Of a stretch of DNA of 64,000 bases, positions 21,001 through 27,000 are shown piece after piece. The position numbers were made by a program. The DNA comes from an uncultured Phycisphaerales bacterium (GTDB lineage: Bacteria > Planctomycetota > B15-G4 > CAYZWU01), in contig CAYXGI010000024.1 of the NCBI GenBank assembly GCA_964464495.1, positions 3,020-67,019 of the forward strand, read 5' to 3'. The stretch's first letter is position 1; every line of letters begins with the position of its first letter.

Positions 21001-24000
21001 CTGTTGGAAGATACCCGGCTAGTTGAAGGATTAAAAACAGGTGCCGATGAAGCGTTCCGGGAGCTTCTCGACCGCTATGAGGCCAAGATTTTCAACACGG
21101 TCCTCCGCATCGTCAAAGACCACTCGCACGCGGAAGATGTGGTTCAGGAGGTTTTCTTGAAGACGCTCAGGAACATCGGCTCATTCAACTTTCAGGCGGG
21201 TCTTTACACCTGGATCTACCGCATTGCGGTGAATGCCGCCCTCGACAACCTCAAGAAGACTCAGCGAATGAAACCCCTCTCGATTCACGGCAGCGAGGAA
21301 CAGACCTTTGAAATCCCATCGGAAGTCGACGACCCCAGTCGTGCGCCCGAACGGGACGAGATGGCGCAGATCCTCACCGGCGCGATCGACGAGCTGCCCG
21401 ATAAATACAGGACGATTCTCATTCTCAGAGAGTACGAAGGGCTCTCCTACGAGGAGATCTCACGGACGCTCGACTGCTCCAAGGGCACGGTCGAATCCCG
21501 GCTCTTCAGGGCGCGCGAACGGCTCAGGAAAAAAATGGAGAAATATCTCTAATGGAAAGCTACGGTTTCCACGAATGCCACGAATTCCACGAACTGATCA
21601 ACCGATTCCTCGACAACGAACTCGGCCGTGAGCAGAGTCGCACCCTGCACGATCATCTCGCGCAGTGCGCACCCTGCGCGCGACGTCTCGAACAGTACCA
21701 GACGCTCAGCGCGTCTCTGCAGCCCGAGACCGTGGAGCCGCCGGCGGCGCTCCGTCCGCGGATCCTGAACGCTTTGCGAACTGAAAGTTCGACTCTGCGA
21801 AATCGGCGAGCTGAGACCAACGGTGTTGCGCTCGACAAGGTCATCCTTCTGTTCCGGCGCGCGGCTGTGGCCGCTCTCCTCTTCGTGGCGATCTCGGCCA
21901 CCCTCTTCTTTGGCCAGCTCGGCACTCTTCAGGCGGACGACAGACCGGTTCACTACGAAGATCTCTTCTCGATCAGCGCCCCTGACGACGCCCTCGAAGC
22001 CTTGATTCACACCACGACCCAGAAAGACGCACTGCGCCGTTTTCTGAACGAGGAGGGAGAATGAAAACCAAGAGCCCTCTCCTGTGGATCGTTGTCATTG
22101 CCCTCTGTTTCTTCGTTTTCGGCTATCTCACGAGCCTCTACATGTCCACGAACAGCGGCCCGCAGGCGCCCACTTACGTGGAGCGGCTCGACGAGGCCCT
22201 CGACCTGTCGAACGATCAGGAAAAGAAAATCTGCTCCTTGCTCGACGACGAGGACGAGCGGATCAGCGCCATCCTCGACAGGATCCGCGCGTCAGTGGTC
22301 GAGGAGATTCAGAAGGTGCGCGGCGACACGAAGGAAAAGATCCGCTACCTCCTCGACGAATCGCAGCGTCAGCTCTTCGATGAAGGCGGTTTTTCCAAAG
22401 ACGGGGATTTTTAAGGACCGACGAAATTTAAGACTGTGCCTTGCGCAAGGCGCGATTATGATAGAACCGAACATGACCGAGGTGGTTGACAGTAAAGACA
22501 AAACCATTATCGAGATGAGGAACTGAGAAGCATGGGTTATTTGAGCGTCGATTTCGGTTGTCGCAAGATCAGGCTCCTCGAAACCGAGGGAACAGCCAAG
22601 AGAATCAAGCTCAAGGCGTTCCGCATGATCGATACGCTCCGTGAGGGAGTCGAGATGCTCGACGACCCGCCGAGCGCCAAGGCCACGGCCGAGACATTCA
22701 AGCGGACACTGTCGAAGAACAAGTTCTCGCGCGATCCATCGTGCATGGCGCTCGATACGTCTTATTCCATCATCCGCGATATCTCCCTGCCCTTCAAAGG
22801 CGACGACCAGATCCGCAAGGTCATCAAATTCGAGTCGGAAAGCCACATTCAGCACGACATCGACGATGTGGTCGTGAGCTACTTCAAGCGATCGGAGACA
22901 GTCGACAAGAGCAACCTCATGGTGCTTGCCGCCAAGAAGTCCGATCTGAGAAAACACCTCGAATTTCTCGACAACGTGGGCGTCGATCCGGTCCAGATCG
23001 ACCTCGACATCCTCTGCCTTTTCAACGCTCTCTGCGGATCGGGTGTGGTGAAGGACCACAAGTGTTTCATCGTTCTCAGCGCGGGGCGCGAAAAGACCGA
23101 TCTCCTCGTGATCGACAAGGAACGGCTCGTGTCCTGCCGGTCGATTCCGATCGGCGCGGGCGGGATCGCCGCAGCCCTGACACACGACCTCAAGGAAGGG
23201 CAGCTCGAGCCGTCGGACAGCGGTGTGCGGCTCCTCGGCTTCACCAACGATCAGGCTGTCACGGAGAGGGTCTTCGAGGGAGATGCGGCTCTCCTCGGCG
23301 AAAGCGGCGCCGAACCCGGCGCGGAAGCAGAGGGCGACAGCGACGAACCCACCTCGGCCGAAGCCGATTCACAGGAACGCGATTCGGCCGAATCCGGTGC
23401 AGCACTCCGCGCGACGGCGGAACCCGATTCGAACCGGGTCGAAGCCCTCGCCTCGGGCCGCCGCAAGGATTACCTCCTGAAACTCAAACGCGAGGTTATG
23501 CGCGTCCTCACCTTTCTCCAGATGGAGGACACCCCCGAAAAGGTCTACCTCACTGGAATGGGAAGCCGCATGCCGGGCTTGAAGGAAACCGCCGAGGGCC
23601 TCTTCCACACCAAGGCCAAGGAACTCGACCTTCTCGGGCGCGTTGACCACTCTTTCTCCCCGAGCGAGGTGCGGGCGATCAACAGCGAGGTGGGAATCAG
23701 CCTCGGCCTCGCCTACAAGCAGATGGGCTTCGACGCAACACGCGTCGACTTCCGCCAGGAGGACGTTCGGTACGCGAAGAAGTTCGACCAGATCAAGATC
23801 CCTCTCGTCTACCTGACTCTGCTCGTCCTGATCATGACGATTCTGCTCAATCTTGAGCTCTACAAGAAGCGGGACGTGAAAAAACGGGAGCTCTTCTGCA
23901 TCTACGAGTATTCGCTCCAGGAACTCGGCGAGGCGCTGGGCGACAAGGAGAAAGCAAAGGAACTCGTCTCGGCCGAACCGGCCAACTCGCGCACTGGCGT

Positions 24001-27000
24001 CCTGCTCATCAAGCGTATCCTCACCAGGAAAAACACCGAGCTCCTTGACGAACTCGGTCGGGGCGGCACGATCCCCGAGCTGCCCTCGGTCTTTCCCGTG
24101 TGGCACGCCGTGTTCTCCGCTCTCATGGAGCGCGACAAGGATCTCGAGATCTTCAAGCTCGACGAGTTCAGGATCGACACGCGGGTCAACCCGCCCACTC
24201 TGCAGCTGAGCGGCGAGGTGGGGACCGGCGAAGATATGTCGGCGCTGATCAACATTCTCTCCGAGGTGCCCATGCTCTACGATGTCAAACCGGGCGAGGA
24301 CAAGCCCACACCGTCGGGCAACCGTGAGTTCTCGAATATCAAGGCCTTCATCAGAACCGAAAAAAAGGAGGGCTAATCATGTTCGGCATGGATTTCGTCA
24401 AGTTCACCCTCGTCTCCGCCGCGATCCTCCTCGCCGTCTCCGGGGGTTTCTACGCCTTTCAATCGTGGGATCTCACCCGGCTGAACAAAGACGCCAACTC
24501 CCTCTTTCTCCGCACCCTGCCCGAGGTGGGCAAGCTCGGATACGACGTGTCGCTCAAGCAGGAAGAGATCAAGAAAGACGAGATGCGCGGCCTGCAAATT
24601 CACAAGTACGTCCAGGAACGGGCTCACGAAGCCTACATAAAATACAACGAGCTCCAGCTCGGCAAAGCGCGCGAGGACCAGAACACGCGCGAAGGGTACA
24701 TCGACCACCGCACCGAGATCTCTCCCGCCGGAAAGCGGGGCCGAACCAAGTTTCACCGCCAGTACATCGCCCGCTTCATCTTCCTTCTGGAAAACCGGAC
24801 CAACTCATTGAAAGTCACCTCCCTCAACCTGAGGGATCCGTCAGCCGATCACGAGAACTGGAGCATGACTCTCGAGGTCACTGAACGCAAACCGATCAAG
24901 AAATAGATGAAGCCCCCATTCAACCCTCCCCGAAAAAGACCGGTCGACGATTTCGACGATTGCGTCGACGATTTCGACGATTGCGTCGACGATTTCGACG
25001 ATTGCGTCGACGATTTCGACGGGATCGTCTTCGACCTCGACGGTGTTCTGCTCGACTCGTGGCAGCTCTATCTCGGTCTCTACCGGAATGTGTTCGCCGA
25101 TCTCGTCGGCCGGGAATTCTCCGACGAAGAGCTGATCGGCCACGCGCGCACCACTGAGAGCGGAACCCTGTCGGCTGTTCTCTCTCCTTCCCGGCTCACC
25201 GAGGGCTTCGACCGGCTCAAGTACTGGTACCCCCGCCTCTTCGACGATCTGGCGCCCCCCTATCCCGAGGCGGTGGCCGCTCTCCGCGCAGCCCATGACA
25301 GGGGCAAAAAAGTGGGGATCTTCACGGGCAAGACGCGGTTCACCGCGGAGTTTTCGCTCGAACGGCTCGGCGTGGCCGATGTTGTCGACTCTCTCTCATC
25401 AGAGGATGATTACGAAACACCCAAACCGCACCCGGGAGGGCTGTTGAGGATCCTGAAGAGGCTCGACCTGGAGCCGGAACGCACCCTCTTCATCGGCGAC
25501 CAGAAAATCGATCTCCTCGCGGGCCGGGAGGCGCACACCGCAACGGCCGCGGCGCGCTGGGCGGTGTACACCACGATCGATCGTGACGACACTCATGCCG
25601 ACCTCTTTTTTCCAACAGCCCGGTCATGCCTCGATTTCTTCGATCACATATCTAATGGCTGAAAAAAGTGCGGCAGAGACGGACGATGCCGCAAAGGGGA
25701 AGCAGTATCGTACCCAAGAGCCCTGTGGTCTCCCTGATACCTGTTCGATCTGATGTCTTCACAATTCGTAAATCCTGATTCTCGATGGTGCGATCCTAAC
25801 CAATACTCCACCTACATCCATATAGCAATTCGTGGACCGATGGGAACAAGGTTGGAACAAGAATCGATCGAGCCTGATCGCTTTTCAGGGGCTGTTCGCT
25901 TTCGGCTCATGTGTGAAGAGAGACCACAGAGAGAGGATTGAATAAGTCCGGATTCAGGAAGGCGCGATGTCCGAGTCCCGCGCGAATCGCCGCGGAATTG
26001 CATGTGGGGGAATGGGCCAGAAACAGGGATGACAGGTTGCGCGTGAGTCGACCTGAACCTACAAAAGTCAAGGTAGTGTTACCCGAGCATCCCATAATGT
26101 TCTCCAGGCCCAGCAGACACCCGTCCGACCGGAATATTCCGGGCGGACGCAAAGCGTTTCACCATGCACGGAACAACAAGAAGCAAAAGAAAACTCTCGC
26201 CGATTAGAAGCACTTTATCGCGCATGGTTTGACAGGAAGCACAGGTACTAAGGGTATGAGGACACGTGGGCGAATCCCGTGACCAACCCGCGAGGATCAG
26301 ATCCCCGCGCGCTTCCTGAACCCGTGTGAAGCCAATGAGTATTTAATGATCCCTGTTCAGACTGGTCCTGAATCTTGGATCGGAGTGACAACTGAGAGAG
26401 AGATCTTTTCCTATTTCGATTTCTTGGCTTTACACTATAGACATGATCGAGGCTCTGGTTTTATTACGTTCCTTTTACCGAAATGGTGTATGTTGAATTG
26501 AACGACCCTAGGATCTGTCCGCCATGCCATGAACCGGAGAGAGAGTAATGAGCAACTGTCCTGTCTGCGGAAACGAACTCGGTGATTCGGAGATCGTCTG
26601 CGCGGAATGCGTGGAGAAGATCGCCCTCAACGAACCCAAGAGACGGGAGGTCAAGATCCGCCACGTGGCTGACACGCTGATCGTCTTTCTGGCGATCTTT
26701 TTCTTCATGAAGGGCGCCTTTGCCATGTGGGGGAAGGAAGACTACGACGGCTTCATCGGAACCCTCGGATTCACGTCAGAACAGGGTGGTGACGGATTGC
26801 ACTATTTCAACGCCACGATCTGCATCCTCACCGCGCTCGGCTACGCGGTCACCGCGCTCGCCAACTACCTGGCGCGGCCCTGGACATTGCGTCTCTGCTT
26901 CTTCACGCTCTGCTTCTTCGTCGCGGGACAGCTCGTCGTCCAGCTCGGCGACATTCATGAGAACTTCGGATTCACCAAGGCGCTCAGTGTGATCTTCTTC

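Follow-up and report, generated by a model that had tools for sequence, protein, structure and literature searches.

Conserved linkage of an extracytoplasmic function sigma factor unit to genes for a PilM–PilN-like fusion protein and a PilO/GspM-fold partner in Planctomycetota

Five genes, encoding in order a sigma factor of the extracytoplasmic function (ECF) type, an anti-sigma factor, a Spy-like protein, a PilM–PilN-like fusion protein and a PilO-like protein, form a unit that recurs across the sampled classes of Planctomycetota. The unit was analysed in a stretch of 64,000 nucleotides (nt) from an uncultured Phycisphaerales bacterium (contig CAYXGI010000024.1, positions 3,020 to 67,019 of the forward strand), referred to below as the window, where it is followed by a gene for a HAD phosphatase. 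Each component is itself of a known kind, and it is the conservation of the five genes as a unit that is the new result. Planctomycetes are known for an atypical envelope, crateriform-structure fibres, macromolecule uptake and division without FtsZ, processes for which few of the molecular players have been identified (PMC12673574, PMC10632474). The five-gene unit offers a genetically tractable candidate for one of these envelope, uptake or division processes.

All six + strand open reading frames (ORFs) listed by the initial annotation, an earlier description of the window, are present. They are the sigma gene (21004–21552, 182 amino acids, aa), the anti-sigma gene (21552–22064, 170 aa), ORF3, encoding the Spy/CpxP/CnrX-like membrane-anchored periplasmic protein (22061–22414, 117 aa), ORF4, encoding the PilM–PilN-like fusion (22532–24376, 614 aa), ORF5, encoding the PilO/GspM-fold bitopic partner (24379–24906, 175 aa), and the gene for the HAD-IA phosphatase (24907–25662, 251 aa). 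The G+C content of the window is approximately 60%, and that of the third codon positions (GC3) is 0.71–0.80 in all six ORFs, which is of the coding type. The genes are tightly packed. The sigma and anti-sigma genes have one base in common (TAATG), and the anti-sigma gene and ORF3 overlap by 4 nt at 22061, both as previously described. The tight junction between ORF4 and ORF5 was also found at the positions reported for it (24376/24379), with the correction that 2 nt, not a 3-bp gap, separate the ORF4 stop codon (24374–24376) from the ORF5 ATG at 24379; an AGGAGG Shine–Dalgarno sequence lies within the 3′ end of ORF4. The overlap reported at 24903 does not exist: the TAG of ORF5 (24904–24906) abuts the ATG of the HAD gene (24907) exactly, with zero overlap. 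Between ORF3 and ORF4 there is a gap of 117 nt (22415–22531), on which the initial annotation was silent.

Homologues of ORF4 with 540–650 aa were found in metagenome-assembled genomes (MAGs) of Planctomycetota, mostly labelled PilM. A scan with one genome per species gave 43 loci, all from Planctomycetota, and the labels of the loci include Phycisphaerales, Phycisphaeraceae, Planctomycetaceae, Brocadiaceae, Isosphaeraceae and Singulisphaera. The components were then tallied with family hidden Markov models (HMMs) at 46 non-redundant loci, which span Phycisphaerae, Planctomycetia and Brocadiia-labelled MAGs; the denominators that follow are the loci with enough flanking sequence. An ECF sigma gene precedes the PilM-fusion gene in 37 of 38 loci, an anti-sigma gene (a homologous ORF with a mid-chain transmembrane helix) is present in 37/38 and a Spy-like gene in 29/38, and the PilO-like partner follows the PilM-fusion gene in 40 of 43. 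This order of sigma, anti-sigma, PilM-fusion and partner genes is far beyond chance.

The order persists at low levels of sequence identity. At a PilM identity of 56% (locus L001) the entire order from ribBA to the PMT gene is retained, and at 43% (L003) the sigma, anti-sigma, small, PilM-fusion and partner genes are all found and the HAD gene is missing. At 30% (L005) a sigma gene, a gene for a 184-aa membrane protein, the PilM-fusion gene and a gene for a 180-aa partner stand between unrelated flanks, and at 23–35% (L050–L053) the same bounded unit from sigma to partner is seen, pilus and secretion genes being absent from the surrounding ±10 kb. The flanking genes vary by lineage and the downstream flank switches directly after the partner gene; the boundaries of the unit are sharp. 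The gap between ORF3 and the PilM-fusion gene is mostly 4–30 nt across lineages. The HAD gene was found only at L001/L002, L007 and L008, where PilM identity is at least 52%, and is missing from all more distant loci. It was rejected as a member of the conserved unit for this reason and is regarded as a lineage-specific accessory, and therefore the core consists of five genes. Conservation of the six-gene order, as originally proposed for checking, thus holds for this core and not for the HAD gene.

On sequence and model evidence, ORF4 is predicted to encode PilM at full length, joined to a membrane and periplasmic part of PilN-like type, giving a GspL-type architecture built on a PilM domain. 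The PilM-like, actin-fold cytoplasmic domain comprises residues 1–400 (22532–23731). The window protein matched Pfam PilM_2 (PF11104) with 42.3 bits (cut-off 27, E 5.9e-11), and 29 of 30 family members matched the same model, the best with an E value of 2e-28. A profile built from the 30 family sequences found PilM of T. thermophilus (2ych) with an E value of 6.5e-35 over residues 15–372, followed by the PilM proteins of M. xanthus (4.5e-32) and P. aeruginosa (3e-15) and by FtsA (1e-9). An AlphaFold model made from the 30-sequence alignment had a mean predicted local distance difference test score (pLDDT) of 79; in a Foldseek search with this model PilM again came first (E 3e-21 to 8e-21, target TM-score 0.80–0.84 with 5eou and 2ych), with FtsA (4e-15) and the cytoplasmic domain of EpsL (1.7e-9) lower in the ranking. 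An FtsA or Hsp70 identity was rejected, PilM being far better in both sequence and fold. The adenosine-motif glycines of the predicted ATP site, G342 and G344, are invariant in the family.

The best-conserved stretch of the ORF4 family is a juxtamembrane motif, [VIL]DFRQEE..[YF]A.KFD..K, which together with the single transmembrane helix spans residues ~404–445 (23741–23866) and in which R408, Q409, E410 and F418 show no or almost no variation. In the model, residues 398–409 form a confident extended segment containing VDFRQEDVRYAKKFDQIK, a 50-residue helix (417–469) then makes up the transmembrane span and a coiled coil, and further helices follow. By positional comparison the motif presumably occupies the place of the N-terminal PilM-binding peptide of PilN. 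The periplasmic part (23867–24376) consists of coiled-coil helices and a C-terminal alpha-beta-beta-alpha-beta-beta domain (residues ~521–607, pLDDT 85–89), and its likeness to PilN and to the C-terminal domain of GspL is one of model topology only. The score of ORF4 against Pfam T2SSL was 22.4 bits, under the cut-off of 25.5, and that against the GspL model TIGR01709 was 21.8 (cut-off 65); sub- or near-threshold T2SSL/GspL matches of this kind occur in 24 of the 30 family members and none of them covers the periplasmic half. A profile–profile comparison (hhalign) of the C-terminal half with the ORF5 family gave a probability of 14.5%, aligning only the juxtamembrane and transmembrane stretch. 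Of the GspL/PilM–PilN architecture claimed for ORF4 by the initial annotation, the PilM domain (in sequence and fold), the single transmembrane helix and the topology are borne out, and a profile match for T2SSL or for the periplasmic half is not.

The long acidic linker named by the initial annotation does not lead into the transmembrane helix. The acidic stretch is a disordered, low-complexity insertion (residues ~250–298, 23279–23425, pLDDT <50) inside the actin-like domain, at the position expected of subdomain 2B. It was seen only in Phycisphaerales-type relatives and is missing altogether in more distant members of the family. Its length differs widely among close relatives, and in one homologue (P0006) a long run of GGDTE-type repeats stands in this place.

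ORF5 is modelled as a bitopic protein with the PilO/GspM fold. The model (pLDDT 78.5) has a short cytoplasmic N-terminus, an N-terminal transmembrane helix and a coiled coil (6–70), followed by a ferredoxin-like alpha-beta-beta-alpha-beta-beta domain, and a fold search with it returned the PilO/GspM fold, EpsM and PulM being among the top matches. At E<=1e-3 the family has 146 representatives among 1.84 billion sequences, nearly all of 170–210 aa. No Pfam or NCBIfam model, PilO and T2SSM included, matched the protein. The assignment is therefore one of fold and not of sequence, as the Pfam, NCBIfam, PDB-profile and profile–profile comparisons all gave no support; to this extent the GspM/PilO-like character proposed for ORF5 stands.

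The first three genes resemble known envelope-stress units. The sigma protein, a group 4 sigma factor of RpoE/SigW-like type, matched Pfam Sigma70_r2, r4_2 and Sigma70_ECF, having regions 2 and 4 only, and scored 125 bits against the NCBIfam model for ECF sigma factors (TIGR02937, cut-off 42.9). It lies below the equivalog cut-offs for RpoE (148 vs 236) and SigW (139 vs 209). The anti-sigma protein is single-pass, with a transmembrane helix near residues 104–124 and a short periplasmic tail, and its cytoplasmic domain matched Pfam zf-HC2 (33.4 bits, cut-off 22.2) and carries the motif HLAQCAPC (H-x3-C-x2-C); its scores against the NCBIfam anti-sigma models are under the cut-off. Among distant loci the zinc-finger motif is retained only in some (L016, L046 and L049), and the mid-chain transmembrane helix in all.

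ORF3 of the window alone gave no Pfam match, LTXXQ included. The alignment of its family shows an N-terminal transmembrane helix and, beyond it, a domain of helices that carries two L-[ST]-x-x-Q-type motifs. When the family profile was searched against the PDB, the top four matches were structures of Spy, with E values from 5e-4 to 2e-3 and the whole periplasmic part covered, and Pfam LTXXQ matched 6 of 19 family members weakly (best E 0.0095). This evidence weakly but consistently suggests that ORF3 is a membrane-anchored Spy/CpxP/CnrX-like protein, as the initial annotation had it. At six loci (L005, L030, L037, L038, L046 and L049) there is no separate Spy-like gene but a longer anti-sigma protein, whose periplasmic tail measures 80–106 aa vs ~20–60; an L-T-x-x-Q motif occurs in the tail at L030, L037 and L038. 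Together with partial HMM matches between the long tails and the Spy-like domain (E ~0.003), this hints that the module has been fused or replaced, a relation that is statistically unsupported (hhalign probability only 2.7%).

A candidate ECF-type promoter, GGAATTT-N17-TCCAA, lies upstream of the sigma gene on the + strand (20947–20975). Upstream of the sigma genes of 35 non-redundant loci the most enriched spaced word pair was GGAA...CGTC, present in 24, and the next unrelated pair was present in 14. The instances have the form GGAA[G/T]-N17-21-CGTC[C/T/G][A/C]A and their start is ~605–850 nt upstream from the stop codon of the sigma gene. In the window and in L007, its closest relative, the variant GGAATTT-N17-(TG)TCCAA is found, and counting the TGTC variant raises the total to 26/35. 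Shuffled sequences gave a mean of 1.2 and a maximum of 4, the reverse complement gave 1 and nine other offsets gave 0–3. The layout is that of a classical autoregulatory ECF promoter, as predicted from this motif. An internal ECF promoter was rejected, the motif not being recurrent at offsets inside the cluster. A scan of the cluster in the window, which models sigma-70-type promoters and one ECF motif, found neither a + strand sigma-70-like promoter nor an intergenic terminator between the genes. Nothing in these scans divides the sigma unit from the downstream genes. Of the outcomes named beforehand as telling against the initial annotation, neither an unrelated family for ORF4 with no GspM/PilO fold in ORF5, nor an unconserved cluster with internal promoters, was found.

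A metagenome scan with the sigma profile returned 80 sigma factors at 37–42% identity, mostly generic RpoE-like, and a PilM-fusion gene was downstream in 3/35 of those with enough downstream sequence. As identity alone failed to separate linked from unlinked sigma factors, a tree was used. In this neighbour-joining tree, made with no bootstrap, the PilM-linked sigma factors form two exclusive clades (of 37 and 6) and 32 unlinked sigma factors of similar identity form a separate clade. Thus the sigma factor has co-diverged with the scaffold genes.

These results are tentatively read, at somewhat less than an even chance, as a single transcription unit under an autoregulated ECF promoter whose PilMNO/GspLM-type platform would be the docking site of a type IV filament-type machine that has its genes elsewhere. 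The sigma, anti-sigma, Spy-like, PilM–PilN fusion and PilO-like genes would be transcribed together from the promoter upstream of the sigma gene. The single-pass anti-sigma factor would keep the sigma factor at the membrane, and the membrane-anchored Spy/CpxP-like protein may act as a modulator or sensor on the periplasmic side. Once freed, the sigma factor would transcribe its own operon, the two scaffold genes included. The PilM–PilN fusion and the PilO-like protein would pair as a PilN/PilO-type heterodimer and so make an inner-membrane platform, on which a pilus or secretion apparatus, with its motor, secretin and pilins encoded elsewhere, could dock. The sigma circuit would in this way adjust the supply of the platform to the state of the envelope, with the anti-sigma factor and the Spy-like protein gating the sigma factor according to periplasmic or envelope conditions.

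No secretin, GspE/PilB ATPase, PilC/GspF or PilP gene is present in the 64-kb window, and no secretin, ATPase, PilC or pilin gene was found within ±10 kb in nine gene-annotated neighbourhoods, namely the window and eight other loci. Around the other loci PilP, like the secretin, is also absent over ±6–10 kb. Nor are there gsp genes (E, F, D, C or pseudopilins) next to the unit in any locus examined. The term orphan, applied to the scaffold by the initial annotation, holds locally, over the window and these neighbourhoods, and not at the scale of whole genomes. That the missing parts are encoded elsewhere is plausible on several counts. A pilin-like gene lies at 609–1118 of the window. GspE- and GspF-type genes are listed for 45 of 45 planctomycete genomes in the phyletic table of P. 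limnophila, and for one Gemmataceae genome PilB/C/D/Q/T have been reported, together with separate PilM, PilN and PilO. In R. baltica a ‘pilM’ gene (RB2860, orthology to ORF4 unverified) is co-induced with pilB/T/C under salt stress. In P. limnophila a ‘PilM’ gene, Plim_0076, and two adjacent small genes (Plim_0076–0078) are essential, orthology to ORF4 being again unverified. Their phyletic counts (Planctomycetes/PVC/other bacteria) are 24/24/0, 4/4/0 and 8/8/0, and the zero counts in other bacteria make them planctomycete-specific; among the rows listed, no sigma factor is annotated beside them.

Several observations weigh against this reading of the unit. At 46 of 46 loci no PilP, secretin, ATPase, PilC or pilin gene adjoins the scaffold genes, and canonical pilMNOPQ genes usually form one operon. 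The C-terminal half of ORF4 is without a Pfam match in 30/30 family members and without a sequence-profile match in the PDB, and an 83-sequence profile of ORF5 returned only coiled-coil noise from the PDB sequences (best E 0.057). In the predicted ATP site the acidic residue of the phosphate-2 motif is D or E in 15 of the 30 members; it is Ser in the window protein and N, S or K in its clade. The 117-nt gap before ORF4 could house a promoter of a type outside the scan models. The ribBA gene is upstream of the sigma gene in ~3/4 of loci, on the same strand and across the phylum. Finally, the related loci are all on MAG or metagenome contigs and were recruited via one peptide pattern. The main alternative, possible though in our view doubtful, is that the unit is a self-contained signalling device independent of any pilus or secretion machine, in which a repurposed PilM–PilN and PilO-like pair forms a membrane complex with the anti-sigma factor and the Spy-like protein and serves as sensor or transducer for sigma release, or as direct effector. 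The absence of PilP, secretin or motor genes beside the scaffold genes (0/46 loci with any) would then be expected, as would periplasmic domains that have diverged past sequence recognition and an ATP-site motif that is degenerate in part of the family. The near-absolute linkage to the sigma and anti-sigma genes across classes, while all other neighbours change, and the restriction of the sigma clade to PilM-linked loci point the same way, and H. pylori provides a precedent for PilMNO without a pilus (PMC10823254). With separate PilM, PilN and PilO reported in the Gemmataceae genome, the fusion could be an additional paralogue, and the essentiality of Plim_0076–0078, if these are orthologues, is unusual for pilus genes. 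However, the proposed contact of the scaffold with the anti-sigma factor or the Spy-like protein is unsupported, the comparison of anti-sigma tails with the Spy-like domain reached only the probability of 2.7% given above, and operon linkage would be expected no less of a scaffold that is simply the sigma factor's chief target; moreover, Plim_0076 has no annotated sigma gene beside it. A related proposal, which we rate as unlikely, is that the PilM–PilN fusion and its PilO-like partner constitute the transmembrane sensing or transducing arm of the ECF sigma pathway, possibly an essential one, so that a type IV filament alignment complex would have been converted to sigma-factor signalling or to organising the envelope and would no longer represent pilus parts. 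If true, this would add a new mode to anti-sigma control, and the unusual envelope or division biology of planctomycetes would gain a candidate for one of its core components; membership of Plim_0076–0078 in the ORF4 family, if borne out, would make the unit necessary for viability.

Much less probable is a role in morphogenesis or division, with ORF4 as a membrane-tethered actin homologue of the FtsA/PilM type that would organise envelope growth, budding or fission through its periplasmic arm and be kept under an envelope-stress sigma factor. The ORF4 family is found in several classes of a phylum whose division is unexplained, with ftsZ lost throughout and ftsA in the majority (PMC12673574). 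FtsA is the second-best match of ORF4 in both structure and sequence, and the essential P. limnophila genes would be a further lead. That orthology is unverified, however, and PilM stands far above FtsA (6.5e-35 vs 1e-9 in sequence, 3e-21 vs 4e-15 in fold), ORF5 has the PilO/GspM fold and no division or peptidoglycan genes are conserved beside the unit in the loci examined. A lack of any functional coupling, whereby the sigma/anti-sigma/Spy-like unit and the PilM-fusion/PilO-like pair are independent modules kept adjacent by inherited synteny, also seems improbable. Synteny alone can persist in Planctomycetota, since ribBA stays upstream in most loci without apparent functional reason; the two halves are 117 nt apart in the clade of the window, and the promoter scan was limited to the two kinds of promoter modelled. 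Nevertheless, the linkage of sigma and PilM-fusion genes (37/38) is tighter than that of ribBA and persists where ribBA has been lost (L003, L016, L026, L052 and L053). In most lineages only 4–30 nt separate ORF3 from the PilM-fusion gene, the downstream flank switches right after the partner gene, and the sigma clade does not extend beyond PilM-linked loci. On balance, the platform docking a machine encoded elsewhere is retained as the preferred reading.

The accessory HAD protein matched Pfam HAD_2 with 100.8 bits (cut-off 23.8, E 1.3e-28) and has the catalytic motif FDLDG. The VDDFDDC repeat that had been noticed at its N-terminus proved to be a perfect array of 3.8 copies of 21 bp (24943–25021, + strand; Tandem Repeats Finder, 100% matches, score 158) directly before the FDLDG motif. 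In the closest relative, L007 (84% PilM identity, HAD gene at L007:8358–9065), there is no repeat and a single SDFDG is found instead, and on two contigs with an identical PilM protein (L134 and L135) the HAD proteins have 251 and 244 aa, a difference that matches one repeat unit. By this evidence the array is apparently recent, with a polymorphic copy number.

The HAD gene is followed by 885 bp (25663–26547) without a convincing ORF, Rfam family or tRNA, and long gaps in this place are also found in relatives (~980 nt in L007, ~690 nt in L001). Within the gap only a short block near 26443–26500 (...ATGAT...TTTATTAC...GGTGTATCTTGA) is conserved, in 4 of 4 aligned sequences, and could represent the promoter region for a zinc-ribbon membrane protein gene lying downstream. 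This gene, for a multi-transmembrane protein of 187 aa, and a gene for a PMT/GT39-like glycosyltransferase of 674 aa (together 26548–29152) are the downstream neighbours in the window; they are syntenic in L001, L007 and L008, the first alone also in L003, and not beyond.

The upstream neighbours in the window, an M48 peptidase gene, gyrA, ribBA and a B12-radical-SAM gene, are housekeeping or unrelated. The ribBA gene (DHBP synthase/GTP cyclohydrolase II) lies at 18065–19447, and the gene for the B12-binding radical-SAM protein (19454–20824) has been inserted between it and the sigma gene in the clade of the window. Antisense to gyrA, ribBA and the radical-SAM gene runs an ORF of 1081 codons (17675–20920, − strand). 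Its GC1 (0.77) exceeds its GC3 (0.67), the pattern of a shadow ORF, and it is therefore regarded as an artefact of high G+C; further shadow ORFs of this kind occur at several other places in the window. The cluster region itself contains no Rfam RNA and no tRNA. The sole pilin-like feature of the window is a protein of 169 aa with a prokaryotic N-terminal methylation (prepilin-type) motif, N_methyl, encoded at 609–1118. An overlapping ORF of 182 aa without a Pfam family precedes it at the start of the window, and the two (64–1118) could belong to the margin of a cluster of pilin or pseudopilin genes that runs on beyond the window. On the − strand, 22 kb from the sigma unit, genes for a serine protease of DegP/HtrA type that has three PDZ domains (47944–49989) and a second trypsin-like peptidase (47055–47921) make up a pair (47055–49989) of the envelope-quality-control protease type that feeds ECF pathways elsewhere.

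Among known systems, the type IVa pilus proteins PilM, PilN and PilO of Thermus, Pseudomonas and Myxococcus (the alignment subcomplex) are among the closest counterparts of the two scaffold genes. Residues 1–400 of ORF4 correspond to full-length PilM, ORF5 is predicted to have the PilO fold, both membrane parts have the layout of transmembrane helix, coiled coil and alpha-beta-beta-alpha-beta-beta domain, and the order M-(N)-O is retained. In the planctomycete unit, however, PilM and the PilN-like part are one polypeptide and PilM is not a separate soluble protein; the periplasmic domains lack sequence similarity, pilP and pilQ do not follow, and the genes are inside an ECF sigma operon. The GspL/GspM pairs of type II secretion (EpsL/EpsM, PulL/PulM, XcpY/XcpZ) share with it a cytoplasmic actin-like domain, one transmembrane helix, a periplasmic ferredoxin-like domain and a small bitopic partner encoded next. 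They differ in that the cytoplasmic domain of ORF4 is nearer to PilM, with T2SSL under its cut-off, and in that the unit has no adjacent gsp genes.

The closest studied relative in the same PVC (Planctomycetes–Verrucomicrobia–Chlamydiae) superphylum is the Amuc_1098–1102/MUL2 cluster of Akkermansia muciniphila, with its ‘PilM-like’ Amuc_1101 and with Amuc_1100. Of the NCBIfam models, that for Amuc_1101 (NF045709, ~608 positions) matched ORF4 best (E 1.9e-17), but the score of 63.3 bits is far below the cut-off of 650, as befits a distant relative only. In Akkermansia a PilQ secretin and a pilin-like protein are encoded within the cluster, which lacks sigma and anti-sigma genes and has been tied to mucin use and host signalling (PMC5332112, PMC13174399, PMC10688800).

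On the regulatory side, envelope-stress units such as RpoE–RseA–RseB and CnrH–CnrY–CnrX have an ECF sigma factor followed by a single-pass anti-sigma factor and an autoregulatory promoter with a GGAAC-type −35 and a CGT-type −10 element; CpxP is a further periplasmic modulator. The planctomycete unit resembles them in its sigma and single-pass anti-sigma factors, in an extra periplasmic helical protein of Spy/CpxP/CnrX type and in a promoter of autoregulatory type. It differs from them in its sigma factor, which is under the RpoE and SigW cut-offs, in its anti-sigma factor, whose zinc-finger motif is retained only in some lineages, and in its PilM/N/O or GspL/M-type genes, which those units are not known to carry. 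The part of the literature covered (the paper that reclassified the ECF factors, and reviews and genome papers on planctomycetes) describes no ECF unit with a PilMNO/GspLM-type scaffold as its context, in agreement with the initial annotation, which had called the arrangement undescribed. To the ECF sigma factors the unit would add a group with a type IV filament scaffold as conserved context.

A precedent for the ‘orphan’ scaffold is the flagellar cage of H. pylori, in which PilM, PilN and PilO, present without other pilus genes, have been recruited to the flagellar motor (PMC10823254). There the three are separate proteins with no linkage to sigma or anti-sigma genes, whereas in Planctomycetota PilM and the PilN-like part are fused and the unit, which is not flanked by flagellar genes, is joined to an ECF sigma factor. 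For the type IV filament field, in which the H. pylori flagellar cage came first, the planctomycete unit would be a second example of PilMNO set apart from pilus genes.

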